A stretch of DNA of 64,000 nt from a virus (IMGVR_UViG_3300043466_002831:57364-121363), one strand, 5' to 3'. Numbered from the stretch's first letter, positions 3,369 to 57,292 are shown. Notes: generated by a model from the sequence alone, not told the origin. Program-made: numbers and translations.

Positions 3369-3376
3369 TACATTTG
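3369..3376 (+). promoter_or_regulatory. -7 promoter box TACATTTG, 4 nt upstream of ATG 3381
   Basis: TAnnTTTG-N4-ATG. Confidence 0.5.
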
Positions 3377-3380
3377 TATT

Positions 3381-4529
3381 ATGGAGAAAATTGTCAACAC
3401 ATTAATCGACGAGGCAGTACAGAAAGTCGATACATATACTAATAATGGTTCAACTTGGCTCATTTTTACAGATGATAAAAGATGGGTTATTGAACTTACC
3501 AAAGATGGTACGTTATGGTATAACTACAATTTCTTTAATAGTTTATTTGCATATACCTCAATGGATGTAATTGAAAACCAACATTATATTACAAAGTGGG
3601 TTGAGAACAATGTCATCAATAAGAAAAAACCTGTCAAAAATGAGGTGAAAGACACTGAAGTGCGGAAGCGTCATTTGGTCCAACAGGTTGAAGACACCAT
3701 TCAAAATGGGGTGAAGCATACCTCTGGGGGTAGAAATTATGGTCCGTATAGAGTTGAAGACACCATACATAATGGGGTGAAGGAAACTATTGACCTTGAG
3801 ATGGATGACGAAGATGTTATTGAATACATGATTGAAACAGGTGTTAAAGAAACCATTGAATTGGTTAACTCTCAACTTGAGGAAGTTGAAGATACCATTC
3901 AAAATGGGGTGAAGAACACCCAACTTTGGTTAAATACCAGAGATACAGTAGTTGAAAGCGCTATTCAAAATGGGGTGAAAAATACCTACTCAGATAAAAT
4001 TCCTCATGAATATGATTGGACTGACCAATTTGATGTTAAAGAAGTTATTGAGACTGGTGTGAAACACACCGAAAAATCACTACAAATTGATGGTTCTTGT
4101 GTTATTGAAGATGTTATAAAGGAAGGAGTGAAACATACTGAGTATGGTGATTGGGAGGATGGTGATGAGAGATTGGATGATATCATTAAGAATGGGGTTA
4201 AACAAACCTGTGCTCAGATTCCCTCAATAGATGCTGTAGTAGAAAGAGTGGTTGAGGAAGGGATAAAAGAAACTAACATGGAAGAACATCATCGATTACG
4301 AGAAGTAGTTCAAACGGTTAAGAATGGTGTCAAAGAAACTCATGATGATGTTTATCCTCATACTGCCCGAATTGAAGGTGTGATTAAAAATGGAATTAAA
4401 GAAGTTCAACCATTACCAGCACAAGATGGCAACAGAGATTGGGGGATTTATTATTATAGAAAAGAAGATATAACCAAACCTCATACTCAATATGTGAATG
4501 ATGTAATTGAAAACGGAGAAAAATTTTAA
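3381..4529 (+). CDS. repeat protein with about 12 copies of an (I/V)xNGVKxT motif
   Basis: Peptide repeats such as EDTIQNGVKHT, IHNGVKET, IETGVKET, IQNGVKNT, IKEGVKHT, IKNGVKQT, VKNGVKET. The nucleotide repeat AATGGGGTGAA recurs. TACATTTG-N4-ATG promoter box directly upstream. Confidence 0.7.
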   Translation: MEKIVNTLIDEAVQKVDTYTNNGSTWLIFTDDKRWVIELTKDGTLWYNYNFFNSLFAYTSMDVIENQHYITKWVENNVINKKKPVKNEVKDTEVRKRHLVQQVEDTIQNGVKHTSGGRNYGPYRVEDTIHNGVKETIDLEMDDEDVIEYMIETGVKETIELVNSQLEEVEDTIQNGVKNTQLWLNTRDTVVESAIQNGVKNTYSDKIPHEYDWTDQFDVKEVIETGVKHTEKSLQIDGSCVIEDVIKEGVKHTEYGDWEDGDERLDDIIKNGVKQTCAQIPSIDAVVERVVEEGIKETNMEEHHRLREVVQTVKNGVKETHDDVYPHTARIEGVIKNGIKEVQPLPAQDGNRDWGIYYYRKEDITKPHTQYVNDVIENGEKF

Positions 4530-4531
4530 AT

Positions 4532-4927
4532 ATGAAAATAGGAATAACTGCAAGTGCATTTGATTTATTACATGCGGGACACGTTTTAATGTTAAAAGAG
4601 GCAAAATCGGTGTGTGACCACCTGATTGTCGCTTTACAAGTAAATCCAACATTAGATAGACCTGATAAGAATAAACCAATTCAATCTTTTTATGAGAGAT
4701 GGACTCAATTATCTGCGGTGAAATATGTGGATGAAATTATACCATATGAATCGGAAAAAGAACTTATGACAATCCTTCAAAATAATAATATTGATATTCG
4801 AATATTAGGTGATGAATATCGAAACAAAGTTTTCACGGGTTGCAACTTAGAAATGGAATACTACTTCAATAAAAGAACCCACAAATATAGTTCAACAGAA
4901 TTAAGAAAACGTCTCGGTGGTATTTAA
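4532..4927 (+). CDS. cytidylyltransferase (TagD/glycerol-3-phosphate cytidylyltransferase-like nucleotidyltransferase)
   Basis: HxGH motif FDLLHAGH near the N-terminus, and overall similarity in pattern to TagD-family enzymes (MKIGITASAFDLLHAGHVLMLKEAK...YVDEIIP). Confidence 0.65.
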   Translation: MKIGITASAFDLLHAGHVLMLKEAKSVCDHLIVALQVNPTLDRPDKNKPIQSFYERWTQLSAVKYVDEIIPYESEKELMTILQNNNIDIRILGDEYRNKVFTGCNLEMEYYFNKRTHKYSSTELRKRLGGI

Positions 4928-5108
4928 TTACATGAGAGATGCATTTATAATTAAAGGTAAAGAGATAAACTACATGGACACAAATTGGGTCATAACTGAA
5001 TTATATTACGTGCCAAACAATCCAAATTTATATGTTGAATTGTATGATGGTAAGTCAAGGATGAATGTGATATTGGACTCAATAAAGGATTTAATTATAA
5101 GAGAGTAA
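4917..5108 (+). CDS. hypothetical small protein
   Basis: 63-aa ORF between two enzyme genes. Confidence 0.35.
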   Translation: MVFNYMRDAFIIKGKEINYMDTNWVITELYYVPNNPNLYVELYDGKSRMNVILDSIKDLIIRE

Positions 5109-5109
5109 T

Positions 5110-7154: not shown

Positions 7155-7209
7155 AACTTTAAAGATAATAAAGATTCATTATTAAACAAATATCTATATA
7201 TTTATTATC

Positions 7210-8421
7210 ATGAGATTAGATGAAAACATACTTAGAATAAAGGAAGTTATGGGATTGATTACCGAGGCGGAAGTAAATCCTCAAGGTGTTGAAATTAATC
7301 TTGGTAACTTATTTAAATCAGGTAAATATATTATAACACCTGAAATTGGTACTAAAATTAATTCTGCTATTAATCAAATCAAAGCATTTATTACTAAAAA
7401 TCCAGGTAAACCTGTTGTAGTTACAATAGAATCATCGGAATCAAAAGTACCTAATTATGACAGAGAAAAATTCCCATCAACTGGGAATAATGAGGTTGAT
7501 TTTACTAAAGAGAAAAAAATGGTGGTTGGAGCACTATCAAAAATTAGGGCAAATAATTTATCAACATATTTAAAACCTAAATTACCTAAAAGTGCTCAAA
7601 TAGTTATCAATGACAAGGGTGCTCAAGGACCTACTTGGGATGGCGTGAATGCGGATGCTGAAAAATATACTCAAAAACAATATGTTAAATTATTTGCAAA
7701 ACTTAACACTACCCAACCAACAACAAGTACGCCTAAAACAGACCCTAAATTTTGTACACAAGAAATAGAAAGTTCTGGTGGAAAGGGAAACCCAAGTAAT
7801 GGTTTTATCTCCGAGGTAAAAACTATTGAACTAGGTGAAGGTGAAAATACATTTAAATTCTTTATTGATTCTATAAGTGTACCTGATATTATGATTGTTG
7901 AATATAATGGGGTTACACAAACTACGGGATTTGTTGGTAGTGATACTGAATTATACCAAACTTTATTAGGGACTATAATTTATAACCGTTACGATAATTG
8001 GGGTAACCCAAGACCGTGGTGGTTCAAAAACCTTAAATTAGTTGGAGTACAACCATATCACGCTGACCAAGTTTTAAAAAAATATTCAGGTGATTGGACA
8101 CCTGATGATTTATCACACATCTATCCAAAGGCTCCTAAATTAAGTACTACTTTTTTTCAAACAATGACTAAAAATCCTGACGAATATGTTGGGAATTTTA
8201 AAGTATATAAATTAGGCTACGATTCAATTAGAACGATGGCGGCGGGAGTTGATGCTTGGAACGGTCCATCAAGTATAACTATTAATAAAGTTGCTGGTGT
8301 GAATACTGCCAAAGTTACTATCATTGGATTGATAGGTCAAACAAAATGGAAATTATATGTTAAGTGTGGTAACATTGCACCAATGTTAACAACTGCGGGT
8401 GGTTCAGGTGGGGATGCTTAA
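7210..8421 (+). CDS. hypothetical protein with variant NTM-like N-terminus
   Basis: MRLDENILRIKEVMGLITE resembles the MNLREDIERIQEVMGIE variant of the family motif. Confidence 0.55.
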   Translation: MRLDENILRIKEVMGLITEAEVNPQGVEINLGNLFKSGKYIITPEIGTKINSAINQIKAFITKNPGKPVVVTIESSESKVPNYDREKFPSTGNNEVDFTKEKKMVVGALSKIRANNLSTYLKPKLPKSAQIVINDKGAQGPTWDGVNADAEKYTQKQYVKLFAKLNTTQPTTSTPKTDPKFCTQEIESSGGKGNPSNGFISEVKTIELGEGENTFKFFIDSISVPDIMIVEYNGVTQTTGFVGSDTELYQTLLGTIIYNRYDNWGNPRPWWFKNLKLVGVQPYHADQVLKKYSGDWTPDDLSHIYPKAPKLSTTFFQTMTKNPDEYVGNFKVYKLGYDSIRTMAAGVDAWNGPSSITINKVAGVNTAKVTIIGLIGQTKWKLYVKCGNIAPMLTTAGGSGGDA

Positions 8422-8532: not shown

Positions 8533-10752
8533 ATGAGATTATTAACTATTTTATTTTTGACCCTATTAACGTCAATAGGGTATACACAGTATTGCCCTGC
8601 ATTAGGTCCTGACCAATTACTTCCATGTGGTGTTGGTACAACAACATTAACCGCTGACCTATCCCAATGTGGTGGAGGTGGGGCAAACCCAAATCAAACA
8701 ACAAACTACGGTGTAACTAATATACCTTACGTTGCTCAAACAAACACAGGAACAAATTTGTTTATGACGGATGACTCCCAACAAGGGCCGTTCAGTATTG
8801 GATTTAACTTCTGTTTCTTTGGTACGACATACACTCAATTCTATGTTGGCTCTAACGGGTGGATTTCATTCGGAGCGGGACAACCAACAACCTTTACGTC
8901 TCAACCAATCCCAACAGGTAATGGTTTGGTACCTAAAAATTGTATCATGGGTCCTTGGCAAGATTGGCATCCTGGTCTTGGAGGTCAAATAAAATACCAA
9001 GTTCAAGGAGTTGCACCATGTAGAAAACTTGTAGTTAGTTGGATTAACATGCCGATGTTTTCATGTACAGGTAATCAAGGTACATTCCATATTGTAATAT
9101 ATGAATCGTCTAACTATATTGAGAATTATATTCAAAATAAACCTGCGTGTTTGCAGTGGCAAGGTGGGACTGCGACACAAGGAATTCATAATTCATTAGG
9201 TACTATTGGTATTGCGGTTGCTGGTAGAAACTCAACTGCGTGGACAGCAACAAACGATGCGTACAGATGGACACCAAGTGGTCCTGTAGTTACACCAACA
9301 TTAACTTGGTATCAGGTAGGTAATCCAACTCCAATAGGAACGGGACCAACAATTACGGTGACACCACCTGCGGCAGGAGCACAATATACTTGTAAATTTG
9401 TTTATCCTATTTGTAACGCGGGATGGTCAAATTGTAATTTAAGTACAGGTAACTTAGGACCCGATACGGTCTTTGTTGTGCCAGGTCCACCAAACTTACC
9501 ACCACCAATTGTTACGACATTCAACCCAAATTGTGAGGGTAGTTGTGATGGTGCAATCAATGTGGTTTCAAATGGAGGAACAGGTGTAAGTACCATTTCT
9601 TGGAATGGACAACCACCATTATTTACATTAACCAACTTATGTTCGGGAATTTATTCATTTACTATTGTGGATGCGGCAGGTTGTAATGTTTCAGGTACGG
9701 CAACTTTAGTTAATCCACCACCTGTAATCGCAAATCCAATCATTGCGTCAGATACGGTATGTTATCAGTCAAACAATATGGTATATACTACAACTGATTT
9801 AGGTGTGGGATATACATATCAATGGTCATCTGTTGGTAATATTGTGTCAGGTCAAGGGAATGATACGGTTGTTGTTGATTGGTCAGTATTACCTGCGGGG
9901 TTTATACCAAATGCTGTTGACATGATTGCCGTCAGTCCAAATGGATGTTTAAGTTTCCCCGTATCGTTTGACATCACAATATTCAATGTACTTCCTGTGA
10001 TAACACCTGTTGGACCATTCTGTTCTAACGATGAGTTCACTACGTTAAATGCAACACCAATAGGCGGAGTATTCAGTGGAACAGGGGTAATGGGTAATGA
10101 CTTTTATCCGTCTAATGCGGACACATTAAACAATATTATCACCTACACCTATACTCAAAGTGGATGTATCTTTGATACCACTACGGACATCATAGTATAT
10201 GAGCAACCAATCTTATCTCAAATCACTCCATACAACGAGTTCTTTGAAGTTTGTGACGGTGATTCAATACCAAGTATATATAGTGTAACTTCAACCGTTC
10301 TTGGTGGATATAATGAATGGACATTATTGGGTAACACAACTGAGTCGGATAACTTTAACATTGCTTGGGATGCATTTGGAACATTTGTATTATCAGTTGT
10401 AAGTTATGTTAATGGATGTGCATCACCACAACAACAAACAACAATCACAATTGCTCAATGTCCTCAAGAATTATTATACATTCCAAATTCATTTACACCT
10501 GATGGTAATGAGTTTAATAATACATGGAGACCCATAATTACTTCAGGGTTTGATAACACAGAATACCGAATGACGTTATATAATAGATGGGGTGAAATTA
10601 TATGGGAATCTCAAGACATCAACGAAGGATGGGATGGAACTTATAATAATAGTATAGTTCCTGTTGGTTCATATGTTTGGACGGTACAACTCAAGGCGTT
10701 AAAGACCGATTATAGACAGATATTGTCAGGTAGTTTGAATGTTTTAAAATAA
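8533..10752 (+). CDS. large secreted surface protein with T9SS type-B (gliding-motility-associated) C-terminal sorting domain
   Basis: Signal peptide MRLLTILFLTLLTSIGYTQ. C-terminus YIPNSFTPDGNEFNNTWRPI...YRMTLYNRWGEIIWESQDINEGWDG...GSYVWTV fits the T9SS type-B C-terminal domain pattern. Terminator follows. Confidence 0.7.
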   Translation: MRLLTILFLTLLTSIGYTQYCPALGPDQLLPCGVGTTTLTADLSQCGGGGANPNQTTNYGVTNIPYVAQTNTGTNLFMTDDSQQGPFSIGFNFCFFGTTYTQFYVGSNGWISFGAGQPTTFTSQPIPTGNGLVPKNCIMGPWQDWHPGLGGQIKYQVQGVAPCRKLVVSWINMPMFSCTGNQGTFHIVIYESSNYIENYIQNKPACLQWQGGTATQGIHNSLGTIGIAVAGRNSTAWTATNDAYRWTPSGPVVTPTLTWYQVGNPTPIGTGPTITVTPPAAGAQYTCKFVYPICNAGWSNCNLSTGNLGPDTVFVVPGPPNLPPPIVTTFNPNCEGSCDGAINVVSNGGTGVSTISWNGQPPLFTLTNLCSGIYSFTIVDAAGCNVSGTATLVNPPPVIANPIIASDTVCYQSNNMVYTTTDLGVGYTYQWSSVGNIVSGQGNDTVVVDWSVLPAGFIPNAVDMIAVSPNGCLSFPVSFDITIFNVLPVITPVGPFCSNDEFTTLNATPIGGVFSGTGVMGNDFYPSNADTLNNIITYTYTQSGCIFDTTTDIIVYEQPILSQITPYNEFFEVCDGDSIPSIYSVTSTVLGGYNEWTLLGNTTESDNFNIAWDAFGTFVLSVVSYVNGCASPQQQTTITIAQCPQELLYIPNSFTPDGNEFNNTWRPIITSGFDNTEYRMTLYNRWGEIIWESQDINEGWDGTYNNSIVPVGSYVWTVQLKALKTDYRQILSGSLNVLK

Positions 10753-10793: not shown

Positions 10794-10805
10794 GTATTTA
10801 TTAAT
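10794..10805 (+). promoter_or_regulatory. conserved upstream motif GTATTTATTAAT abutting ATG
   Basis: Identical 17-mer AAGTATTTATTAATATG also occurs at 18119-18135 and 34354-34370, each directly after a terminator. Confidence 0.5.
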
Positions 10806-11120
10806 ATGAACTTACGAGAAGACATAGAAAGAATTCAAGAGGTAATGGGTATTGAGGTATCAAATCTATTCAAACGAAAAATGCATATTGTTGACCGACT
10901 AATATATACTTTGATTGAAGATTCAATGTATCCATGTGATTATGATAATGAGGAAGAGTTTTATGAGGGAGTTATTTATGAACTCAGTTGGTTAGTTAAA
11001 AACAAGGACTTTGGTTTAGATGATGTTGAATGGTTAGATATCTATGATTACATAACAAATTTCAAAGAAGAAGAACTCAAAGGTTATTATAAAGAACGTT
11101 GTGGTGACAAAGATGTTTAA
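10806..11120 (+). CDS. NTM family protein (MNLxE variant)
   Basis: Real start is the ATG at 10806 (MNLREDIERIQEVMG). The track start 10770 lies inside the upstream terminator hairpin. Conserved GTATTTATTAAT motif immediately upstream. Confidence 0.65.
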   Translation: MNLREDIERIQEVMGIEVSNLFKRKMHIVDRLIYTLIEDSMYPCDYDNEEEFYEGVIYELSWLVKNKDFGLDDVEWLDIYDYITNFKEEELKGYYKERCGDKDV

Positions 11121-13210: not shown

Positions 13211-13237
13211 CCCTCACATAAAGTGGGGGTTTTTTTG
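13211..13237 (+). terminator. rho-independent terminator
   Basis: CCCTCAC-ATAAA-GTGGGGG followed by TTTTTTT. Confidence 0.75.
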
Positions 13238-13245
13238 TATATTTG
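13238..13245 (+). promoter_or_regulatory. Bacteroidota-type -7 promoter box TATATTTG, 4 nt upstream of ATG
   Basis: Matches the TAnnTTTG consensus; its spacing to the ATG implies a leaderless transcript. Confidence 0.55.
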
Positions 13246-13249
13246 TAGT

Positions 13250-13528
13250 ATGAAGAAACTACTTAAACACATAATCATACTTGCAATCGTTAGAAATGAG
13301 AGAAAGGCTCAGATGATTATCGATATCCTATACGACCAAACAACAACAATAACCAAAGACAATAAGGTTGTTGTGATGAAAGGTGAGACTAAAAATGTTA
13401 TGACACCACCGAACAACAAAAGACAAGAAGTTTTGGACGCCATTCAGTTCCTCAAGAATAAAGAAACAAAGACCAAAGCTGACCGAGAAAAGATTCAAAT
13501 GTTGGAAGTGGTTCTTAAAACCGTATAA
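13250..13528 (+). CDS. hypothetical small protein
   Basis: ATG at 13250 is preceded by TATATTTG-N4. The track start lies within the upstream terminator T-run. Confidence 0.5.
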   Translation: MKKLLKHIIILAIVRNERKAQMIIDILYDQTTTITKDNKVVVMKGETKNVMTPPNNKRQEVLDAIQFLKNKETKTKADREKIQMLEVVLKTV

Positions 13529-13537: not shown

Positions 13538-14038
13538 CTAAGATAACTCGTTGTGATATGGAAATGCATATTGAAAAGATTCTGTATAATCTTCATTATT
13601 TGCCATTCTCTGAACCATATCAAAATCAGACATAGCTCTGTTGTAGAAATCTTTACCTCGTGATACAATCTCAGACCTCAAGTCACCCCAACTATCATCA
13701 CCAACATTATAAATGTCATCACCCCATTTTTTCTCAAGAGCTTCTATTTTTGAATAGAAGCATGTTTTAAGTGCGAGAAGTACATCTGAATCTATACCAC
13801 AATAACGATTTAGATTCAAGAATATATTTCTTATCCTTTGATAATCATTATCTGATGGATAGTCCACAAAATCAATAACTTGCCAAAAGAATTTGTCCAT
13901 ATGAACTGCGTACCATTTTTCGTCTCTAATTTTAACATTATCATCAGGTAGTTTGAAATCCTTAAACAACGGAAGACAGGTAATAAAGTCTTCGGTCTCT
14001 TCTTTTAATACTTTTCTGATGGATTCTTTTAGGTTCAT
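13538..14038 (-). CDS. NTM family protein (MNLKESIR variant)
   Basis: N-terminus MNLKESIRKVLKEE on the minus strand. Confidence 0.65.
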   Translation of the reverse strand: MNLKESIRKVLKEETEDFITCLPLFKDFKLPDDNVKIRDEKWYAVHMDKFFWQVIDFVDYPSDNDYQRIRNIFLNLNRYCGIDSDVLLALKTCFYSKIEALEKKWGDDIYNVGDDSWGDLRSEIVSRGKDFYNRAMSDFDMVQRMANNEDYTESFQYAFPYHNELS

Positions 14039-14107
14039 ATATGATAAATACTATAATAAATAAAAAAGGGGGTTGGGGGATTTGATGCCAGCCACACAAC
14101 GACAGAT

Positions 14108-18116: not shown

Positions 18117-18135
18117 TATTAAAGTATTTATTAAT

Positions 18136-18447
18136 ATGAATCTAAAAGAATCCATAAGAAGAATAATAAGAGAAGAATTTAAATCGAAATTCTTTATTAG
18201 AAGAGTTGATTTAGATTTAGCTAAAGACATGCTTCCAATTAATGCAGAACAAGTATACCATGAAACTGAAAGTTATGAGCAATTCAAATATGAATTAACT
18301 TTAAGGGTTGTGGAAGCAATTATGTGGAATAAGTATGAACTTGGTTGGGAAGATTTACCTGAACAAGAAGAAATAGAATACGTGACTAAACTTTCGGATG
18401 CATTCGAGAAAACAATTAAACGGTTATATCATATTTATCATAATTAA
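18136..18447 (+). CDS. NTM family protein (MNLKESIR variant)
   Basis: MNLKESIRRIIREEFKSK; the AAGTATTTATTAATATG cassette lies upstream. Confidence 0.65.
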   Translation: MNLKESIRRIIREEFKSKFFIRRVDLDLAKDMLPINAEQVYHETESYEQFKYELTLRVVEAIMWNKYELGWEDLPEQEEIEYVTKLSDAFEKTIKRLYHIYHN

Positions 18448-18639: not shown

Positions 18640-19077
18640 TTAATAAGGGTATGAAACAGTACGAGCATTCGTATTGAATACTCCATTAATAATATTCAAT
18701 AAAGGTTTACTCCAAATATTGATATCACCGAATAAACTTTCAAGTCTTTCATACATTTCCTCAGATAATACGATGAGGTCAAACTCCTCGTCACTTACGT
18801 CAGGACTATTTTGGCAAGGTTCAGGTAACTCATCTTTAAGTTCCTGAGGATAATCACCATTATCATCGTAATACTGTCTATTAACCAATTTAAATAGGTA
18901 GTCATCGTATTCCCTATCAGGTAGAACAAACCCTATGGCATAAGGGTCACAACATACACCCATACCACAATTAAAATCAGCCCAATTATAATAACAATTA
19001 TCAAATCCCTCAAAAGAAATATCAATGTAGTTGTGAATAACTTTAGTAAGTTTAGATTCTGAGATAGTTACTTTCAT
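18640..19077 (-). CDS. NTM-like family protein
   Basis: MKVTISESKLTKVIHNYIDISF on the minus strand. Confidence 0.55.
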   Translation of the reverse strand: MKVTISESKLTKVIHNYIDISFEGFDNCYYNWADFNCGMGVCCDPYAIGFVLPDREYDDYLFKLVNRQYYDDNGDYPQELKDELPEPCQNSPDVSDEEFDLIVLSEEMYERLESLFGDINIWSKPLLNIINGVFNTNARTVSYPY

Positions 19078-19386
19078 ATAAAATAAATATAGGTCAACAA
19101 CCTTATATTCCCTTACGGTAATATTCTTTCAGATTACAGTTATACTTTCAGGTATAATACCGTTCGGTATAATACAATTACATCTCTATAAAGGATATGT
19201 GGTAATAATTAGGACATATCCTAAACAGTAATGTATAATTGTTTTACATGATACGGTTCTCATGTATAGAAAGTTTACATACGGTAAATTTAAATGATTT
19301 TACCGTTTACTCTAAATCTGACGGTAAAATATTTGAAGATATAAAAAATATTAATATATTTGTATCATTAACTAACAATAAGAACA

Positions 19387-19653: not shown

Positions 19654-19661
19654 TATATTTG
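19654..19661 (+). promoter_or_regulatory. -7 promoter box TATATTTG, 4 nt upstream of ATG 19666
   Basis: TAnnTTTG-N4-ATG. Confidence 0.5.
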
Positions 19662-19665
19662 TACT

Positions 19666-19842
19666 ATGATGACTACAATACACTCCATGACAGAAGAACA
19701 GGCGATTAAGAACAAGGAACGTTTTAATTCCAAACGAGAACAGATTAAAGAATCCGACATAGCACTATGGAATTATTTGTGCGGGGATGGAGATACCCAA
19801 CACCTGTTTGACTATTACGAACTTTTAGAACAAGGTAAGTAA
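19666..19842 (+). CDS. hypothetical small protein (58 aa, below ORF-track cutoff)
   Basis: ATG preceded by TATATTTG-N4; a perfect terminator hairpin follows. Confidence 0.4.
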   Translation: MMTTIHSMTEEQAIKNKERFNSKREQIKESDIALWNYLCGDGDTQHLFDYYELLEQGK

Positions 19843-19856: not shown

Positions 19857-19882
19857 CCTCACTGTAATGGTGAGGTTTTTTT
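19857..19882 (+). terminator. rho-independent terminator
   Basis: CCTCAC-TGTAATG-GTGAGG perfect stem followed by TTTTTTT. Confidence 0.8.
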
Positions 19883-19883
19883 G

Positions 19884-19891
19884 TATATTTG
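19884..19891 (+). promoter_or_regulatory. -7 promoter box TATATTTG, 4 nt upstream of HNH ATG
   Basis: TAnnTTTG-N4-ATG. Confidence 0.55.
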
Positions 19892-19895
19892 TATT

Positions 19896-20804
19896 ATGTT
19901 AGTTCGCGAGTGTCCATCATGTAATAGTAATATCACATATTCTAATAAGGATAATTTTAATAGTGCCAATAAAAAAGGTAGTTTGTGTAAAAAGTGTGCC
20001 GAGGCAGAGAAACACGGTAGAAAAACTATTACGGACATAAATACATTTTTTAGACTCTATAGCGAAGAACGTAGAAGTGTGGAGGATATTGCAAAACACT
20101 TTGAAGTGTTACCTAGCACTGTTAAAAATTATGCCAACCATAATAAAATAAACAGACGAGATTACGATATTATTATGGAAAAAGAAGGTAAAAAAAGGTG
20201 TCATGGATGTAAATCTTTTTATGTCTTTGATGACTTTCATAAAAACAATAACACTAGAGATGGATTGGTAACCAAGTGTAAAAAATGTATGTGTGAGAAA
20301 TCAAATGATTATAAAGATAAAAATCTTGAACGAGTGTTAAAATCTACAAAGGAATATTCAAAACGAATGAAAGAAGAAAATCCTGAGACCTTTAAAAAGT
20401 GGAGAAAAACCGCTAAAAAAAATTACTTAAACAGTGAGATTGGTAAGTGGGATAGTAAATGTCGTTCTATATTAAAAAGAGCTTTATCTAAAATGGGTTT
20501 AACTAAAAATGATACCACTAACAAATTATTAGGGTATTCACCTAAACAACTTCTTGATTATTTAAAAACTTTTGATTTATATTATGAGGGTGGATATGAA
20601 GTTGACCACAAAGTACCTATTAGTTATTTTAAATTAGGAACTCACCCAAGTATCATTAATTCATTATGTAATTTACAATTAACCACCATTAAATATAATC
20701 AAAATAAAAGTAATAAGTTTGCCGACCCAATTACTATTGATTATTATGATAATATTAAACTACATATTAAAGAAGAATGTCTTAATAAACTTATTGTGAA
20801 ATAA
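19896..20804 (+). CDS. HNH homing endonuclease with two N-terminal Cys4 zinc-finger-like modules
   Basis: CPSCNS...CKKC and CHGCKS...CKKCMC; C-terminal HNH signature YEVDHKVPISYF...N. ATG at 19896 preceded by TATATTTG-N4. Flanked by a 75-bp direct repeat. Confidence 0.7.
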   Translation: MLVRECPSCNSNITYSNKDNFNSANKKGSLCKKCAEAEKHGRKTITDINTFFRLYSEERRSVEDIAKHFEVLPSTVKNYANHNKINRRDYDIIMEKEGKKRCHGCKSFYVFDDFHKNNNTRDGLVTKCKKCMCEKSNDYKDKNLERVLKSTKEYSKRMKEENPETFKKWRKTAKKNYLNSEIGKWDSKCRSILKRALSKMGLTKNDTTNKLLGYSPKQLLDYLKTFDLYYEGGYEVDHKVPISYFKLGTHPSIINSLCNLQLTTIKYNQNKSNKFADPITIDYYDNIKLHIKEECLNKLIVK

Positions 20805-20807: not shown

Positions 20808-20880
20808 ATTCCATTCACTCACTACAAAGGGAGACTCCATTCGGGTCTCCTTTTTCGTTCACTCATGTATTGTATTATTT
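20808..20880 (+). repeat. ~75-bp direct repeat copy B
   Basis: Same sequence as 18452-18530, immediately downstream of the HNH endonuclease gene. Confidence 0.8.
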
Positions 20881-21490
20881 CCCCCGCCTAATAGTCGGGT
20901 CCCCACCTAAACGAATAGACAGGTGAGATGTGATGTAGTGGATTATATGAGATTACATATAAGATAAGACCTTCGGTAAGAATTATATGTAATAAGATAT
21001 AATCCATAGAGTGTGGGTCAGGGATGGACTCGTAAGATAAGACCTACGGTCTATAATTAGAGAGTCCATTATTCTCCCACTTTCCTCCACTACGAGTTGT
21101 CTCCACTACGAAGGGACATAGATTGTCCACCTAACGAGGGGGTTTAATAACAAGTCGGTTCCCTCGTTGAAGGGGGATAAAATCCCTCTGAAACACTCCC
21201 TACGGTCGTTTCCCCGCCCTCTACACTTAGTGTTCCTTTTTTATCTGGAAATCGTATATAGTAAAAAAATGGTCCTCCTGATAGTGTCAGGGGGAAAAAA
21301 GTGGTCTTAATACTATCGTAATAAAGGAAATGGTGGTAGAAAGTGGGGGGAATTAGTACATAGGTGGGGAACCAAAAACCCGTCAAGGGATTATCCCCAA
21401 TGCAACGAGTCCCCTGACATTTTGACATTTCCAAATTTTTACCCCTAAAGTTATCAACAATCGACATTTATTTTCCCCCCTGACATAGTG
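20881..21490 (+). ncRNA. GC-enriched structured non-coding element (candidate structured RNA, intron-like or ribozyme-like; or replication-origin structure)
   Basis: Nested perfect hairpins: 20941-21004 (GATTATAT / TTACATATAA arms with a UUCG loop) and 21024-21069 (ATGGACTC / GAGTCCAT enclosing AGACC-UACG-GGTCT). Further helices AACGAGGG / CCCTCGTT and GGGGAT / ATCCC. No convincing ORF. Confidence 0.4.
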
Positions 21491-21554
21491 TCATGTGGAT
21501 AACTTAATTGTTAATAACTTTATTTTTATATGTTCCCCAACTATAATTAACGTC

Positions 21555-21797
21555 ATGAAGTATGTACTGACAGAAATAGATGACAGGATTAGAGTGACCA
21601 TCTCTAATGACGATAAAGAAATAGGTCTCCTTTATTTCGAGAAGGCTAAACTCAACTTTACAAATAAACCATTAAGCATGGGGTCATGGGCATGTGTCGA
21701 TGCCAAGATAGAAGATGATAGTATATTCCATGAAGGGTTCACCCCCAAACAAATGGTGGGGGAATGTCAGGACCTGATTAAAGCGGCGGGGTATTAA
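21555..21797 (+). CDS. hypothetical small protein (uncertain)
   Basis: ORF downstream of the structured non-coding region; MKYVLTEIDD is the more likely start than the track start 21495. Confidence 0.3.
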   Translation: MKYVLTEIDDRIRVTISNDDKEIGLLYFEKAKLNFTNKPLSMGSWACVDAKIEDDSIFHEGFTPKQMVGECQDLIKAAGY

Positions 21798-22262
21798 TTG
21801 TCCTTCTTAAAGAACATATTATATATCCCCACGACTAACCATCCCATGAATAGGTAAAACAAAATCTTTCTCATTAGAGTCTCTCTTTAATAAGTTTCTT
21901 AATATCATCCAAAGTGGTGACCTCTTTGTCCCCCAACATATCCTTAATAGAATTGTAAGCCCAAAGAACTGCGTAACCGATAACAACTGCTTTAATGAAT
22001 TTTTTCATGGTATATATATTTTCAACAAATATATGGAATAGTTGACACTATTCCAAATAAATTCAAACAATATTTCAATCCACCAAAGGGGCGGGGAAAA
22101 AAGATTAACCTCCTATAAAAAAATATAGGACGAGCTGCCTCTGATTAAGCTCCAAGGTATGTTCCACCTAGCCCTTCCTACTCCATCTTTCAGACAATAC
22201 AAAGGTACGGATTATATTTGACAACCCCAAACCTAAACACGAATATTTATTAATATATTTAA

Positions 22263-22700
22263 ATGACCATGACAGAAGAAGAACTATATGACAACTATGA
22301 ATTTAAGGTGACCAAGAGAGCCCTGATGAGAGAGTTTCCATTCATTAAGAATGTGTATGTGAAAGACCCCGCCACTATTGACCAATACAAGTCCTTCATC
22401 TTCTTAGATGCCGATATTAATCCCTATGAGTTCTCACATATGTATGGACTTAAGGTGGACAGGATAACAGACAAATACCTAAGACGAGGTGAACCTTATT
22501 GGGGACCATACCTTTCCCTGTTCATTACAGGTGGGGTTGATGATACATGGCCCATTAAGAAAGCCATTGGTGATTTGATTGATGGTATTCATAAGTCACC
22601 TGCCATACCACAAGAACTAAAGTTGGATAGGGAACTTGAGATATCATCTTACCATGCCAATCCTGATACTCTACCACGTGACATCATGTCATACAAATAA
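22263..22700 (+). CDS. hypothetical protein
   Basis: 145-aa ORF within the non-coding-rich hub. Confidence 0.5.
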   Translation: MTMTEEELYDNYEFKVTKRALMREFPFIKNVYVKDPATIDQYKSFIFLDADINPYEFSHMYGLKVDRITDKYLRRGEPYWGPYLSLFITGGVDDTWPIKKAIGDLIDGIHKSPAIPQELKLDRELEISSYHANPDTLPRDIMSYK

Positions 22701-22856
22701 AAGTTATTAACAATGGGAGGGGAGGGATAAAAGTTATTAACATGTCCCCCCTTTGGCATGGGGGCATACCCCCCTATGGGTACCCCCTCCCCCCCGTATC
22801 CCCCCTTACATACTGTCATATTGTCAGTTTAGGGGGGATAATCCCCTGTATAACGG

Positions 22857-22901
22857 GAAATAAAATTTTGGGAAAAAAATGTTCCTTTTTTGACTATTTA
22901 T
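22857..22901 (+). repeat. 45-bp direct repeat copy 1 (promoter-region repeat)
   Basis: GAAATAAAATTTTGGGAAAAAAATGTTCCTTTTTTGACTATTTAT is 43/45 identical to the copy at 23079-23123. Confidence 0.75.
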
Positions 22902-23007
22902 CTTATAGTAAAACTTATATATATGAAAAAGAATATCTGTTTATTGATTAAAAAAATTACTTTCGGGAAAGTTTGTCTCGGATGGTGTAAAATTTAATTA
23001 ACTTTAA

Positions 23008-23032
23008 CCCCTCCCACAAAGAGGGGTTTTTT
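23008..23032 (+). terminator. rho-independent terminator
   Basis: CCCCTC-CCACAAA-GAGGGG followed by TTTTTT. Confidence 0.7.
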
Positions 23033-23078
23033 ATTTCCTATAAACACGACCCCCTGTTTCGATTTAGTCCTATATACT

Positions 23079-23123
23079 GAAATAAAATTTTGGGAAAAAA
23101 ATGTCCCTTTTTTGACTATTTAT
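23079..23123 (+). repeat. 45-bp direct repeat copy 2
   Basis: GAAATAAAATTTTGGGAAAAAAATGTCCCTTTTTTGACTATTTAT, immediately upstream of the gene starting at 23129. Confidence 0.75.
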
Positions 23124-23128
23124 ATATT

Positions 23129-23428: not shown

Positions 23429-23430
23429 AC

Positions 23431-23455
23431 CCCCTCCCAACAGAGGGGTTTTTTT
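23431..23455 (+). terminator. rho-independent terminator
   Basis: CCCCTC-CCAACA-GAGGGG followed by TTTTTTT. Confidence 0.75.
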
Positions 23456-24639: not shown

Positions 24640-24666
24640 CCCCATCTTTTTTAGGTGGGGTTTTTT
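24640..24666 (+). terminator. rho-independent terminator
   Basis: CCCCATCT-TTTTT-AGGTGGGG followed by TTTTTT. Confidence 0.7.
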
Positions 24667-24669
24667 GTT

Positions 24670-40290: not shown

Positions 40291-40351
40291 TTTTTTTTTA
40301 CATTTCCAAGACACACTTTCCAACTTTTCTTGTCTATATTTGTATTCGTAA

Positions 40352-40747
40352 ATGAAAAAAATATTACTACTAACCTTATTACTCCCAATACAACTGTTAT
40401 CACAGTATGTAAAAACACCAACTCACTTTGATAGTGAGGGAACATCCAAAAACATTATCAAGGGACATGTTAAAATGTTTTTAAAAGACACTGTTGTATA
40501 TACTGTTGAGAAAAAAAATGAAAGGTTTGTAACCAGTTGGTTACCACCATCTCAAGTAGAAAATAAATTGAACAAAGTTTTCGATTTAGGTAAGTTAGAA
40601 TACGTTAGTCGAACTAACGGGGGTTACATTTTTTCTATTGCGGTCATTAACAAAACTGATGATACAAAGGTAATCAACTATTGTAAGTTCCATGTTGATA
40701 GGATAACACAAAAGATTGAAGAGATAGAGATTTTAATTGGTGAATAA
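40352..40747 (+). CDS. secreted protein or lipoprotein
   Basis: Signal peptide MKKILLLTLLLPIQLLSQ. Confidence 0.5.
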   Translation: MKKILLLTLLLPIQLLSQYVKTPTHFDSEGTSKNIIKGHVKMFLKDTVVYTVEKKNERFVTSWLPPSQVENKLNKVFDLGKLEYVSRTNGGYIFSIAVINKTDDTKVINYCKFHVDRITQKIEEIEILIGE

Positions 40748-42339: not shown

Positions 42340-42364
42340 CCCCACTCAAAAGGTGGGGTTTTTT
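42340..42364 (+). terminator. rho-independent terminator
   Basis: CCCCAC-TCAAAAG-GTGGGG followed by TTTTTT. Confidence 0.8.
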
Positions 42365-42387
42365 GTTTATTAATGTATTTATAGAAT

Positions 42388-43065
42388 ATGGCAAGAGTAG
42401 TAAGACTTACGGAACAAGAATTAACTGGATTACTTCAGAACATTATAAATATGGCTTTTAATCCAAGTAAGTCGTCATCAACAAGTAGTACAAGCTCTAC
42501 GGATTCAGGTGACGATATTGAGGGTACTCCAAAAGACACTTCAATAGGTAAGGTATCTGCCAAAGGACAAGCGTTATTAAATAATCCAATTTTTAAGAAA
42601 AAATTAAAAGAAATATCAAACGCAATTCATATTGATGAAAACTCAATCATTAAATTAATGAAACATGAATCAGGTCTTAATCCTGAAATTAAAAATAGTA
42701 TTGGGTGTGTTGGGTTGATTCAGTTTTGTCCTGGTGGAGGAATGCCAAAAACAATTAATGGTAAGTCATACACTTTGGATGAATTAAGATACGACTTGGA
42801 AGCTCAGATGGATGCGATTAAAGAATTTTGGACTAAAGGATATAACAATGGTAAAATAAAACAACCTGCAGACTTGTATCTTTATAATTTCTTCCCTGTT
42901 GCTGCAGGAAAACCTGATGATTTTGTATTACAAGCTAAAGGGTTATCGGCATCAACTGTGGCTAAGGCTAATCCAGGATTTAATAAAAAATTGGGTAAAC
43001 CTGCTTCATCACCATTAACTGTTGGTGATATGAAACAATATTACCGACAAACAGGGATGGCATAA
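42388..43065 (+). CDS. lytic transglycosylase (SLT domain) with NTM-family N-terminus
   Basis: MARVVRLTEQELTGLLQNIINMA, then an STSSTSSTDS linker, then HESGLNPEIKNSIGCVGLIQF (SLT catalytic-region pattern ES...N...S..GA.GLMQ). Confidence 0.6.
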   Translation: MARVVRLTEQELTGLLQNIINMAFNPSKSSSTSSTSSTDSGDDIEGTPKDTSIGKVSAKGQALLNNPIFKKKLKEISNAIHIDENSIIKLMKHESGLNPEIKNSIGCVGLIQFCPGGGMPKTINGKSYTLDELRYDLEAQMDAIKEFWTKGYNNGKIKQPADLYLYNFFPVAAGKPDDFVLQAKGLSASTVAKANPGFNKKLGKPASSPLTVGDMKQYYRQTGMA

Positions 43066-43503: not shown

Positions 43504-43555
43504 TCTAATTTAGGTTTATTTGAATCTAATAAACAAAAACAACATATTTATTAAT

Positions 43556-44056
43556 ATGGGAAAAAGATTTCAACTTACAGAATCAGATAAAGACCAAATT
43601 AAAAAACTTTATCTTATAGAACAGTCCGAAACAAAAGAAGATGACCGTAAATTCTGCCATGGCGGAAACGTAAAGTCTCTTGAAGAAATTGTTGGGGGTG
43701 ACGAAGCCGAAGATTATATTGAAGGTGTTCAGATTAGACCAAATGGTGTTAACGGTTTGGTGGATAAACTTGAGTTATTAAAAACTCTTAGATTACACCC
43801 AAAAGTTTCTGATGGAGGTGAACACTTGGCAAGTGAGATTATGAATCACTTAAAAGGTTTTAAACCTTACAACTATTTTGATGAAACAAAAAAAGAGTGT
43901 GGTTCTGCAATGGATAAGATTATCGAACTTTACAAAGAAAACGAACACGGAGAAGAACTTGTTAAAGACATCGAAAAAGTATATTCAATGAATCACGTGT
44001 CAGCAAGAGCTAAAGAATTTTTAAAACACGGAATGGGAATGATTAAAGGTCATTAA
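43556..44056 (+). CDS. NTM-like family protein
   Basis: MGKRFQLTESDKDQIKKLYLIEQSE from the ATG at 43556, with ATATTTATTAAT upstream. A terminator that overlaps the next track start follows. Confidence 0.55.
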   Translation: MGKRFQLTESDKDQIKKLYLIEQSETKEDDRKFCHGGNVKSLEEIVGGDEAEDYIEGVQIRPNGVNGLVDKLELLKTLRLHPKVSDGGEHLASEIMNHLKGFKPYNYFDETKKECGSAMDKIIELYKENEHGEELVKDIEKVYSMNHVSARAKEFLKHGMGMIKGH

Positions 44057-45687: not shown

Positions 45688-45731
45688 AACTTTAATTTTA
45701 TTTACTATTAAATATTCATATATTTATTATT

Positions 45732-46025
45732 ATGAGAATCACAGAAGCTGAGAAAAAAGAAATCATGTCCAAGTACGATGGGAATACTTCTGATGAATTA
45801 TTGACTCATTTAAAAAGACATTTTCCCGTTATTGAAATTAAATTAGATTGGATGGAAAAACCACTCAAACAAATTTCAATTGATTACAAGACATATATGT
45901 TGGAACACAACAAAAAATACTTGGTCGGAAAATTGTTTAATTATCTTGAAAGTGATTGGGTTCATTTAGGAGAACCAACATTAAGAAGAACAATTAAGAA
46001 ATATTTGGACGGGATTACATTATAA
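45732..46025 (+). CDS. hypothetical protein
   Basis: 97-aa ORF; terminator follows. Confidence 0.5.
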   Translation: MRITEAEKKEIMSKYDGNTSDELLTHLKRHFPVIEIKLDWMEKPLKQISIDYKTYMLEHNKKYLVGKLFNYLESDWVHLGEPTLRRTIKKYLDGITL

Positions 46026-51124: not shown

Positions 51125-51132
51125 TATCTTTG
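51125..51132 (+). promoter_or_regulatory. -7 promoter box TATCTTTG, 4 nt upstream of ATG 51137
   Basis: TAnnTTTG-N4-ATG. Confidence 0.5.
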
Positions 51133-51136
51133 TATT

Positions 51137-51361
51137 ATGTCACAAAAACCAGAAAAAGTAACTAAATTCGAAAGAGTATATGAGGACGAGTATTGTACCT
51201 CTATTTGGAAATATGATTATTCCAAAACTACGTCAGGTCCTGTGTCTGTAGAGCACAAATGGAAAAAGGGGTTTGATGCACCCAATACAAAAAAGAAAAC
51301 TTTGGGTGATTTGGTTAGTGAATCTAATCCAAAAAAGAAATCAAAGGGACCTAAGTCTTGA
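51137..51361 (+). CDS. hypothetical small basic protein
   Basis: TATCTTTG-N4-ATG upstream. Confidence 0.45.
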   Translation: MSQKPEKVTKFERVYEDEYCTSIWKYDYSKTTSGPVSVEHKWKKGFDAPNTKKKTLGDLVSESNPKKKSKGPKS

Positions 51362-51979
51362 ATCAATAATTGATTTTAATTTTAATAATGTTTGTCTGTC
51401 TAAAGACGAAACAACTTCACTTGTATTTTCAATAACCAATCTATCTAATAAAGATTCCTTAAGAGATGATTCACTAACAGGTTGAACATTGTCAAAATTA
51501 TAATCTGATTCTTCAAAATTATCGTATGTCGTGTCTCTTAAATTGTTTCCATTGTATAAATCCCAATTACCATCATTTCTTTGTTGTTCGGCAGAATCTT
51601 GAACCCAATCCATATCATAAGAATCAAATTTTTGGCTCATATAATCATCATAAGTACAATGTCCCCAAACACTATAAGTTAATTCATATGTTTGTGCAAC
51701 AGGAATTATAAGTTTGTCATATAAAGTTTTGTCTCCTGTCTCAAATATGTTAGCAAGAACGTCATCATTCATCTCAAGAAATTTTGAGAAGAACTCAACA
51801 TCTTCATGAACTACCGAAATACTAAAATATTTGCCAATATTTTCTAACTTATTATAAGAATTAGAAAAATCATAACTACCGTAAGGATTTCCTTGTGGAA
51901 AATCCTCATCAACTAATTTTTCTGCAATTAGTACTAATTGTTTTTTTGGTAATTTTGAAAATTGACTTTGTTCTGCCAT
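51341..51979 (-). CDS. acidic hypothetical protein
   Basis: 212-aa minus ORF. Confidence 0.55.
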   Translation of the reverse strand: MAEQSQFSKLPKKQLVLIAEKLVDEDFPQGNPYGSYDFSNSYNKLENIGKYFSISVVHEDVEFFSKFLEMNDDVLANIFETGDKTLYDKLIIPVAQTYELTYSVWGHCTYDDYMSQKFDSYDMDWVQDSAEQQRNDGNWDLYNGNNLRDTTYDNFEESDYNFDNVQPVSESSLKESLLDRLVIENTSEVVSSLDRQTLLKLKSIIDSRLRSL

Positions 51980-51989
51980 AACAATAAAT

Positions 51990-52020
51990 ATAAAAAAAGG
52001 TGATAATTTCTTATCACCTT
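51990..52020 (-). terminator. rho-independent terminator (minus strand)
   Basis: Perfect 11-bp inverted repeat AAAGGTGATAA / TTATCACCTTT. The minus-strand reading is followed by TTTTTTT, downstream of minus gene 52025-52345. Confidence 0.65.
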
Positions 52021-55449: not shown

Positions 55450-55450
55450 T

Positions 55451-55720
55451 ATGGATTTCCCATTTGAACAAATAGAAAAAGAAGGTAAGTTAGTTAGAAC
55501 ATTCAGTCCTGATGTGGATGAGGACGAACTTCAATGGCATCAAGATTTAAAAGACCGAGAAGTTACCGTAGTTGAAGGTAATGGATGGTTATTTCAAATG
55601 GAAAATGAATTGCCAATCAAATTAGAAGATGCCAAACAAATATTCATTCCGAAACTTGCTTGGCATCGTGTTCTAAAAGGTTCGGGTAACTTAATAGTCG
55701 AGATTAAAGAATTTGATTAA
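55451..55720 (+). CDS. hypothetical protein
   Basis: 89-aa ORF. Confidence 0.45.
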   Translation: MDFPFEQIEKEGKLVRTFSPDVDEDELQWHQDLKDREVTVVEGNGWLFQMENELPIKLEDAKQIFIPKLAWHRVLKGSGNLIVEIKEFD

Positions 55721-56832
55721 CCTGCTTGGTCGGGATAATCGTAACCAACAACTTCCTCATCTTGACTTTCCACATCAACCAATCTATGAAGTTCATTAAT
55801 AAATTCACGATTAAGTTCGTGGTTCATAATTTCAGTTAATTCCTCCTCAGCTGTAAGTCCTTGTTCGATATCACGAGCTCTCATAGGTATTAATCTTCTA
55901 ATATTTCGTAATCTAGGTCTCACTTCCACTTCGTCAGTTGGAATTGCTTCCTCAGAATATTTGTTTTTTCGACCCTCCAATTCTATAAGTTGTCGGTTTC
56001 TTTCTTCATCAGATAATAATTCAAAGTTAGCTTTAACTTGTTCTTTAAATTCTTTTCTAATTACATCCATTACAACAATAGGTAATCCACTGTCCATTGA
56101 ATCGATTCTTTGGTCTACAATATCCCAAAATGATGTCTCTTTTTCATGTTGGTCAAGGCTTTTAAATGCCCCAACTTTATCACCCGTAATTTTGTTAATA
56201 CAATAAATCAAAATACCTCTTCTCGAATATCTCAAGTAATAATCGGGATTTTCTTTTGAGGCGGTACACCATTTGGTGCTTGCACCATATTTTAAAGATG
56301 CTTGGTATGACATAGGTTTAATAACCAACCACTCATTATCTTCATATAACTTATGAGTTTGTTTAGATAATTCTTTATCCATATTCTTAAGTTCTGACAA
56401 AGAAATTTGTAATTCGATATCCCTAAAAGTTTTGTATTTGGTTACGTCATTTTGAGTAATTAAGTTTCGTTCATTTAAATCTATAAACTCTTTAAACATT
56501 CTGTAATTATTATACCCAATAAAATGACCCATGAATAATGTTAGTTTCATTAATTCTGCGGTATCCATATTTTTGAGTACCTCTTCATCATAACCAAATT
56601 CTCTCAACTCATATACATAATCGTTTCGACGATTATCATTATCGTGTTCTTTCATTCGGTCATTTTTAATTAAATTAACCAACATCTCTGTGTATTTACT
56701 TTTACCCACAAAATCGTTGATGATTTCAATACCATCGATGGTTAAGAACGGGTTTTGTTTTTTAAGTTCATTAATTCGTGACATATTTTCTTTTGTTTTT
56801 TTAATTATAGTAAAATAAAAATTTAAGTTCAA
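55717..56832 (-). CDS. hypothetical protein
   Basis: 371-aa minus ORF. Confidence 0.55.
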   Translation of the reverse strand: MNLNFYFTIIKKTKENMSRINELKKQNPFLTIDGIEIINDFVGKSKYTEMLVNLIKNDRMKEHDNDNRRNDYVYELREFGYDEEVLKNMDTAELMKLTLFMGHFIGYNNYRMFKEFIDLNERNLITQNDVTKYKTFRDIELQISLSELKNMDKELSKQTHKLYEDNEWLVIKPMSYQASLKYGASTKWCTASKENPDYYLRYSRRGILIYCINKITGDKVGAFKSLDQHEKETSFWDIVDQRIDSMDSGLPIVVMDVIRKEFKEQVKANFELLSDEERNRQLIELEGRKNKYSEEAIPTDEVEVRPRLRNIRRLIPMRARDIEQGLTAEEELTEIMNHELNREFINELHRLVDVESQDEEVVGYDYPDQAG

Positions 56833-56842
56833 ACTTTTTTTG

Positions 56843-56850
56843 TATCTTTG
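56843..56850 (+). promoter_or_regulatory. -7 promoter box TATCTTTG, 4 nt upstream of ATG 56855
   Basis: TAnnTTTG-N4-ATG; supports the revised start of the signal-peptide gene. Confidence 0.5.
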
Positions 56851-56854
56851 TTAT

Positions 56855-57292
56855 ATGAAAACGATACTCACAACAATATTACTTCTTTTATCATTGACTG
56901 TCAAGTCCCAACAGTGTGATGTTTTATATGTCCCAAGTCAAAAAAGTTTGGTTGCTTCATACAATTATAAACAAATTGGTTTATATGTTGGAGGGTATTA
57001 TGTGACGACTTTTCCACAACCATTTATCTACACAACACCTTTGTCTATTGTAAACCGTGTTGGATTAACGTTTGTAAATAAAAACAATACGTTTAGTGTT
57101 ATGGGTGGTGCATATCTTAAAACTTACTTTGACCGTGTAGAGATGACACCTGATATTTGGGTTAAAATTTACCCGATTAGAATGTTGACTGGAGATAAAT
57201 CCAATCTTGATTTTGCTGTAGGCGTAAATTATATGAACGGATTTAGACTAGGAATTGGATTATCTATTCCATATTGGAGTATTTATAAGTAA
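56855..57292 (+). CDS. small secreted, possibly outer-membrane beta-barrel-like protein
   Basis: Signal peptide MKTILTTILLLLSLTVKSQQ from the ATG at 56855 (TATCTTTG-N4 upstream); alternating-hydrophobic, aromatic-rich body. Confidence 0.45.
   Translation: MKTILTTILLLLSLTVKSQQCDVLYVPSQKSLVASYNYKQIGLYVGGYYVTTFPQPFIYTTPLSIVNRVGLTFVNKNNTFSVMGGAYLKTYFDRVEMTPDIWVKIYPIRMLTGDKSNLDFAVGVNYMNGFRLGIGLSIPYWSIYK

Follow-up and report, generated by a model that had tools for sequence, protein, structure and literature searches.

Can the genes of a Bacteroidota phage start so close to their promoters that the mRNAs would carry no leader? The question is raised by a 64,000-nt stretch of viral DNA (IMGVR_UViG_3300043466_002831:57364-121363), referred to at its full length as the window, in which the promoter box TAnnTTTG recurs at a fixed, very short distance from start codons. 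An earlier note, made from the sequence alone, had proposed leaderless mRNAs for at least nine genes whose box ends 4 nt before the ATG (spacing N4). Scanning both strands, we find 11 matches to TANNTTTG-N4-ATG against 2.09 ± 1.60 expected, a count attained in none of 100 dinucleotide shuffles. Ten of these 11 ATGs open reading frames (ORFs) of at least 45 amino acids (aa). When spacings of 0 to 30 are scanned, one sharp spike appears, at 4, and elsewhere each spacing has 0-3 ORF-opening ATGs. The variable pair of the box is TA, CA or TC at all ten gene-opening sites. The figure of at least nine genes thus stands, with ten canonical sites counted, and the list of sites needs correction; overall, the pattern proves real and more pronounced than the note had it. 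Seven of its nine ATG positions are exact (3381, 13250, 19666, 19896, 24682, 51137 and 56855). The ATG placed at 33385 lies at 33386, and its N4 box, AAACTTTG, departs from TAnnTTTG; the one placed at 23521 lies at 23525 and, with an ORF of only three codons, does not count as the start of a gene. Three N4 sites are added, 23796 (+), 906 (-) and 63838 (-), the last of which lies beyond the range that the note had covered. Its two sites with longer spacing, N6 at 30519 and N9 at 40352, were correctly placed, and further short-spacing sites are found at 15077 (N5), 11186 (N6), 46144 (N7) and 14620 (-) (N7).

The same spacing is preferred in related phages. We pooled 101 IMG/VR loci (80 + 21; 1.64 Mb), counting every sequence context once. 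In this pool the ORF-opening ATGs preceded by TAnnTTTG number 160 at N4 and 26 at N5. Each of the remaining spacings from 0 to 40 has 0-24, the general level being about 10, with 10 or fewer at each of N6 to N9. The distribution of box-to-ATG spacings is therefore not flat, either in the window or across the related contigs, and has its sharp peak at 4. Comparison of individual orthologues leads to the same view. For the RNA ligase gene rnlA and for the genes starting at 56855, 3381, 13250 and 906, the box and the N4 spacing are constant and the four spacer bases vary freely, from which we conclude that the spacing itself is under selection.

The position of the box agrees with a transcription start on the start codon. 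In a pooled logo of 167 sites, with the A of the ATG set as +1, the box (invariant by construction) occupies T-12, A-11, T-8, T-7, T-6 and G-5. At its variable positions G is scarce, 7% at -10 and 1% at -9, as in the consensus TAHHTTTG. Further upstream, T makes up 51%, 80% and 83% of positions -36 to -34, followed at -33 by T (49%) or G (37%), matching the -33 TTTG element of Bacteroidota promoters (PMC7366714); positions -24 to -17 are A-rich. Position -1 is a pyrimidine in 88% of sites. In Flavobacterium psychrophilum the promoter box is located at -12 to -5 (PMC9723704), and in F. johnsoniae 4-5 nt separate the box, of consensus TAHHTTTG, from the transcription start site (PMC6847099). Given this published distance, N4 places +1 on the A of the ATG. 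The sequence T-A-T at -1/+1/+2 is also compatible with the Y-1 R+1 Y+2 'start element' (PMC12641261).

The best-supported explanation for this promoter geometry is that the genes are expressed as leaderless mRNAs from sigma-A promoters with +1 on the ATG, and we regard it as probable. Promoter register, orthologues, terminators and codon use all agree on sigma-A-type promoters starting at the A of the ATG. TAnnTTTG would be the -7 element of an ordinary Bacteroidota primary-sigma (sigma-A/sigma-ABfr) promoter, from which the host RNA polymerase would initiate at the first base of the ATG, located 5 nt past the G of the box. The resulting mRNA would have a 5'-terminal AUG and zero leader, and ribosomes would read it via the leaderless route. 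We infer the transcript 5' ends, the use of host sigma-A and the mode of translation from the position of the box. Such a layout would permit compact units, with terminator, promoter and start of the ORF fitted into approximately 45 nt of intergenic DNA.

At five sites the box stands close behind a terminator. A gap of only 1-14 nt separates it from the hairpin and T-run, which leaves no space for a leader or a second promoter. At 13211-13252 (+), a hairpin with T7 (13211-13236) is followed by TATATTTG-TAGT-ATG, and ATG 13250 opens a 92-aa gene. The arrangement at 19857-19898 (+) is the same: a hairpin with T7 (19857-19882), then TATATTTG-TATT-ATG, with ATG 19896 opening a 302-aa endonuclease VII/HNH-like gene. 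At 24640-24684 (+), the terminator (24640-24666) precedes TATCTTTG-ATGT-ATG and a 110-aa GNAT acetyltransferase gene (ATG 24682). On the other strand, at 63836-63897 (-), the terminator at 63897-63865 is followed by TATCTTTG-TCCC-ATG, and ATG 63838 opens the gene for a T4-type RNA ligase 1 of 351 aa. The fifth site, at 33319-33388 (+), is ambiguous: behind the terminator (33319-33345) stand tandem canonical boxes at 33355 and 33363 and then the non-canonical AAACTTTG-TATT-ATG, with ATG 33386 opening a 48-aa ORF. The canonical boxes lie 15 and 23 nt upstream of this ATG and would imply a leader of about 10-19 nt. The terminators themselves form a family of stereotyped terminator-promoter junctions. 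Many have near-identical stems, CCCCATCT...GGTGGGG or CCCCACTC...GGTGGGG followed by T6-8, among them those at 13211-13236, 24640-24666, 32491-32515, 33319-33345, 34068-34093, 34325-34349, 42340-42364 and 63865-63897 (-).

The remaining canonical sites have the same form. At 904-918 (-), TATATTTG-TAAA-ATG opens a 224-aa gene found only in Bacteroidota phages (ATG 906), which retains box-N4-ATG in two orthologues. The site at 3369-3383 (+), TACATTTG-TATT-ATG, has TTG at -35 to -33 and opens a 382-aa gene (ATG 3381); N4 is retained in six related loci, together with the N-terminus MEKIV. At 56843-56857 (+), TATCTTTG-TTAT-ATG precedes a 145-aa protein with a signal-peptide-like N-terminus (ATG 56855), and box-N4-ATG is retained in 10 of 12 distinct orthologues of 49-86% identity, with differing spacers. 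Three smaller ORFs follow TATATTTG-TACT-ATG at 19654-19668 (+) (ATG 19666, 58 aa), TATCTTTG-TCTT-ATG at 23784-23798 (+) (ATG 23796, 72 aa) and TATCTTTG-TATT-ATG at 51125-51139 (+) (ATG 51137, 74 aa). The only orthologue found for the 19666 ORF has a box-like element and a leader of about 22 nt instead of N4. For rnlA, orthologues down to approximately 58% aa identity retain either box-N4-ATG or box-N4-GTG; GTG replaces ATG in nine related loci, whose transcripts, if leaderless, would carry a 5'-terminal GUG. The eleventh match, TATATTTG-TGGG-ATG at 23513-23527 (+), is the one with the three-codon frame; lying in non-coding DNA rich in repeats, it may represent an orphan promoter. The sites with longer spacing include TATATTTG-N6-ATG at 30505-30521 (+) and TATATTTG-N9-ATG at 40335-40354 (+), the latter with an orthologue at N5.

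The proposed start codons were checked against orthologues at the sites that have them; 19896, 23796 and 51137 have none. The alignments begin at residue 1, the N-termini are conserved, and RnlA matches the start of T4 Rnl1 to within 5 residues. Two competing upstream starts, GTG 13223 and TTG 56840, are out of frame or unconserved in orthologues. GTG 13223, the mechanical start for the 13250 gene, falls within the preceding hairpin; N4 is retained in three orthologues of this gene, in one of which a 1-nt deletion in the loop throws the GTG out of frame. TTG 56840 is a spurious start. Of the starts that the earlier note had revised, 13250 and 56855 (+) are thus supported by orthologues; 19896, for which a search for relatives found no orthologues, is supported by analogy only, its upstream rival TTG 19881 being the end of the T-run. 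More generally, longest-ORF starts (GTG, TTG or early ATG) at 10770, 13223, 19881, 23090, 37888, 43520, 49899 and 56840 lie inside hairpins, T-runs or boxes, and the true starts are likely 10806, 13250, 19896, 23129, 37897, 43556, 49917 and 56855. Across the phage family, the start codons at N4 are 124 ATG, 6 GTG and 1 TTG, a near-exclusive use of ATG that is expected if the 5'-terminal codon itself serves as the signal to the ribosome. The lack of a Shine-Dalgarno sequence, which the note had offered as further support, is uninformative, since Bacteroidota do not use one anyway.

Which host would supply the polymerase? The window has a G+C content of 32%, about 114 genes under the standard code and a coding density of 92%; no tRNAs and no matches to Rfam families were found in it. 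Identifiable genes encode T4-type RNA ligase 1, thymidylate synthase, endonuclease VII/HNH-like and GIY-YIG proteins, a GNAT acetyltransferase, a cyclophilin and metallophosphatases. The others are mostly ORFans, and for most of the genes behind the boxes no function could be assigned with Pfam or PHROGs. Two proteins point to Bacteroidota. The protein encoded at 232-906 (-) has homologues solely in Bacteroidota phages (Prevotella Lak, Cellulophaga, Tenacibaculum and crAss-like phages). The 739-aa protein encoded at 8533-10752 (+) carries a C-terminal sorting domain for type IX secretion (CHU_C). It shares 50-62% identity with proteins from metagenome-assembled genomes (MAGs) of Crocinitomicaceae, Flavobacteriales and Bacteroidia, its best genomic relatives being freshwater Crocinitomicaceae and Flavobacteriales MAGs at no more than 62% identity. 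This seems to be a secreted or surface protein that the phage acquired from a host, and as such it indicates the host clade. When the first 25 kb were compared with GenBank phages by megablast, no close relative turned up; the only match, weak and 830 nt long, was to a 634-kb uncultured phage and lay within this sorting-domain gene. The RNA ligase and the 3381 protein have relatives on long IMG/VR contigs, which reach 295-309 kb; one of the long related contigs is IMGVR_UViG_3300027621_000003 (295 kb). Because of these large contigs and the Bacteroidota-linked proteins, we take the window to be part of an uncultured jumbo phage, whose host most likely belongs to the freshwater Flavobacteriales.

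We asked if the layout is also present in the putative host clade. Bacteroidota MAG loci too have a peak at spacing 4-5, and the richest are true chromosomal regions with housekeeping genes. The divergent genes era and tgt, along with three neighbours, are each preceded by TAnnTTTG-N4-ATG, conserved in five Flavobacteriales MAGs. Counting N4 and N5 together, gene starts per 100 kb number 15.6 in the window, 11.0 in the phage family, 8.2 in Crocinitomicaceae, 7.8 in Flavobacteriales, 3.1 in Chitinophagales, 3.2 in other Bacteroidota and 1.8 in three unrelated Bacteroidota phages, the host sample being small and biased to the neighbourhood of one gene family. The class is therefore not specific to phages, as host-clade loci share it at about half the density of the window; the enrichment of the phage is perhaps 1.5-2-fold over the host clade and larger over the other groups. 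The three unrelated phage regions, from a human-gut contig, Cellulophaga phi17:2 and Tenacibaculum pT24, show no N4 peak, indicating, for a small sample of 111 kb in total, that the feature is not general among Bacteroidota phages. Since freshwater Flavobacteriales natively have the box-N4-ATG layout, the phage would be heavily exploiting an expression mode of its host clade rather than inventing one. Leaders shorter than 10 nt are found on 3.7% of mRNAs in Bacteroides thetaiotaomicron (PMC7366714), and leaders of 10 nt or less on 13% in F. johnsoniae (PMC6847099); in F. psychrophilum 5.5% are leaderless (PMC9723704). Judged by promoter spacing, leaderless genes may be much commoner in some freshwater Flavobacteriales than in these model species.

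Several observations weigh against leaderless expression. At promoters abutting terminators (for example 13250) the -33 element is lacking and the T-run takes its place. Sites at N5 to N9 would have leaders of 1-5 nt rather than none. In some orthologues (two of the 56855 gene, L024 and L029, and one of the 906 gene, L090) 21-23 nt of leader follow the box, and the remotest orthologues lie within operons and have no box; for these reasons the leaderless layout is not obligatory. Finally, genes in operons could be translated from read-through transcripts, with the box region serving as an ordinary leader. In one alternative, the boxes are real promoters, most of the protein is made from longer read-through or upstream transcripts, and N4 reflects pressure for genome compaction rather than a requirement of leaderless translation. 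Several N4 genes do start only 23-54 nt behind the upstream gene, no terminator is detectable at 3381, 51137 and 19666, and the leadered orthologues would fit as well. Compaction alone, however, predicts a spread of short spacings and not the observed spike at N4; a start on the A fits the scarcity of start codons other than ATG as well as the pyrimidine at -1, and five sites lie directly behind terminators. We consider this alternative unlikely.

A second alternative, that the motif is a non-promoter signal at the start codon (bound by a phage regulator, used in RNA processing or acting in translation), is less likely still. A translational operator would also be expected at a fixed distance from the ATG; the motif, however, has exactly the sequence of the -7 box defined by experiment in Bacteroidota, down to the avoidance of G at the variable pair, a -33 TTTG-like element lies at the correct distance, and the identical layout precedes the host housekeeping genes era and tgt, where no phage regulator exists. 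An artefact, whether from base composition, duplicated cassettes or misassigned start codons, can be rejected with little hesitation: the genome is AT-rich, with T-rich stretches upstream of genes, and three sites are reached only by shifting the start from that of the longest ORF, but shuffles never attain the observed count, adjacent spacings are at background, the ten genes are mutually unrelated in sequence, and orthologues conserve residues from the proposed ATG and not from the upstream alternatives. Leaderless mRNAs from sigma-A promoters thus remain the preferred explanation of the TAnnTTTG sites, here called class 1.

A second box with the same geometry, RTATTTAT (class 2), lies 4 nt before ten ORF-opening ATGs of the window and 5 nt before six more, 16 genes altogether. 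Exact matches number 11 at N4 and 5 at N5, compared with 0.41 and 0.53 expected. An example is ATATTTAT-N4-ATG at 7198-7212 (+). The other N4 sites are ATGs 10806 (10794-10808), 18136 (18124-18138), 25300 (25288-25302), 25633 (25621-25635), 29097 (29085-29099), 34371 (34359-34373), 43556 (43544-43558), 45732 (45720-45734) and 51979 (-) (51977-51991); those at N5 are 955 (942-957), 23129, 42388 (42375-42390), 57292 (57279-57294), 14038 (-) (14036-14051) and 19077 (-) (19075-19090). In the phage family, 74 sites are at N4, 89 at N5 and approximately 4 at other spacings; a scan of 1.23 Mb of host loci gave no such sites. RTATTTAT and its distance from the ATG are unchanged throughout the 13 orthologues of the 57292 gene (39-64% identity), and nearly every orthologue of 59649 (-) retains them too. 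The box often stands directly behind a terminator, and it has no -33-like partner. From its distribution, RTATTTAT is probably a phage-specific promoter class, likewise fused to the ATG. It is not the T4 late box, as TATAAATA peaks at no position before start codons, neither in the window nor across the family. Pooling both classes, 48 of the 114 window genes have a box within 42 nt, 25 of them at N4-5, 7 at N6-9 and 16 farther away; N4 to N9 thus accounts for about two thirds of the genes in which a box can be recognised over this range.

A candidate for a factor that reads the second box is encoded in the window itself. The gene at 29097-30020 (+) specifies an ECF-type sigma factor with sigma-70 regions 2 and 4 in residues 140-302 (TIGR02937, 95 bits, 3.6e-27, cut-off 42.9; Pfam Sigma70_r2 and Sigma70_r4_2 above their cut-offs), preceded by a 135-aa N-terminal extension that starts MKYIITESQ, and RTATTTAT stands at N4 before its own ATG. 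We tentatively propose that this lineage might express most of its transcription units leaderless through two promoter classes, the host sigma-A box and RTATTTAT, the latter possibly read by a phage factor such as this sigma. If true, the phage would have a near-complete leaderless expression programme, possibly favoured over host messages during infection.

The start of this sigma factor is one of a set of N-terminal tags (such as MKYIITESQ, MKIIITEEQF, MKKIIRLTE and MNLKESIR) common to about a fifth of the window proteins, at least 19 genes, which outside the tag are unrelated to any known family. Examples are 955, 2264, 2840, 11445, 25633, 25869, 26531, 26869, 27574, 29097, 32550, 34371, 35804, 36756 and 45732 on the forward strand and 14038, 19077 and 59649 on the reverse. 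The I-T-E core of the tags resembles the (L/I)xE sites after which the T4 prohead protease cleaves capsid-targeting peptides, and one possibility suggested by this resemblance is that the tag is a targeting or processing signal. A separate region, 20830-23790, has little coding capacity, a G+C content above its surroundings and repeated elements. A 45-nt unit beginning GGAGACTCCATTCGGGTCTCC occurs at 18476 and 20830, a unit 'ttttgggaaaaaaatgt.cc.tttttgactatttat' at about 22866 and 23085, and GTTATTAACA-type repeats around 21450-21520 and 22700-22745. This region could be regulatory or involved in replication.

What does the arrangement offer beyond this phage? The sigma-A class is a fresh example of a known gene organisation, common to the host clade. 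The box-N4-ATG rule provides a simple and reliable caller of start codons and transcription units in Flavobacteriales phages and genomes, where longest-ORF rules misplace starts; at least eight of the starts that they give in the window land in terminators or boxes. Leaderless expression may exceed the 4-5% of model species in some Bacteroidota and their phages, which is relevant because the way in which Bacteroidota initiate translation, with no Shine-Dalgarno pairing, is still under study. RTATTTAT, with the same geometry, is a lead to gene timing in this uncultured jumbo-phage lineage and the part most worth following.

Compared with known systems, class 1 most resembles the sigma-A promoters of Bacteroidota, with the same -7 box and TAHH pair, an AT-rich upstream region and a TTTG-like element about 20 nt upstream (PMC6847099; PMC7366714; PMC9723704). 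The difference is that the box is here fixed 4 nt from the start codon, whereas leader length in the hosts typically has a median of 24-32 nt. Host genes such as era and tgt share TAnnTTTG-N4-ATG, conserved across several MAGs; the density in the phage is somewhat higher, and a terminator often lies immediately upstream of the phage promoter. Leaderless genes are also known elsewhere, such as lambda cI transcribed from PRM and about a quarter of mycobacterial genes. Like them, the genes described here have the downstream promoter element close to the ATG and at a constant spacing, with a strong preference for AUG. Leaderless transcription has been predicted from box-to-ATG spacing before (Zheng et al., 2011, PMC3160421; GeneMarkS-2, PMC6028130). 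The box here is the Bacteroidota -7 box and not a Pribnow box, and for this reason the earlier surveys largely missed Bacteroidota, a limitation stated in PMC3160421. Our search of the literature on leaderless genes or TAnnTTTG in Bacteroidota phages found no prior description.

The comparison with T4 concerns mainly the second class. T4 late promoters consist of a single -10-like element, TATAAATA, without a -35 element. RTATTTAT is likewise a single AT-rich element without an upstream partner, before many genes of a large phage, and differs from the T4 box in sequence and orientation; the phage also shares T4-type genes (rnlA, endonuclease VII-like and td). With the jumbo phages phiKZ and AR9 it has in common a large genome, many short transcription units and transcription factors of its own. 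None of the early transcripts of phiKZ is leaderless (PMC8244752), and untranslated regions in AR9 are 26-491 nt long (PMC5312081). These two phages differ in using their own RNA polymerases, whereas the phage described here has promoters of the host type.

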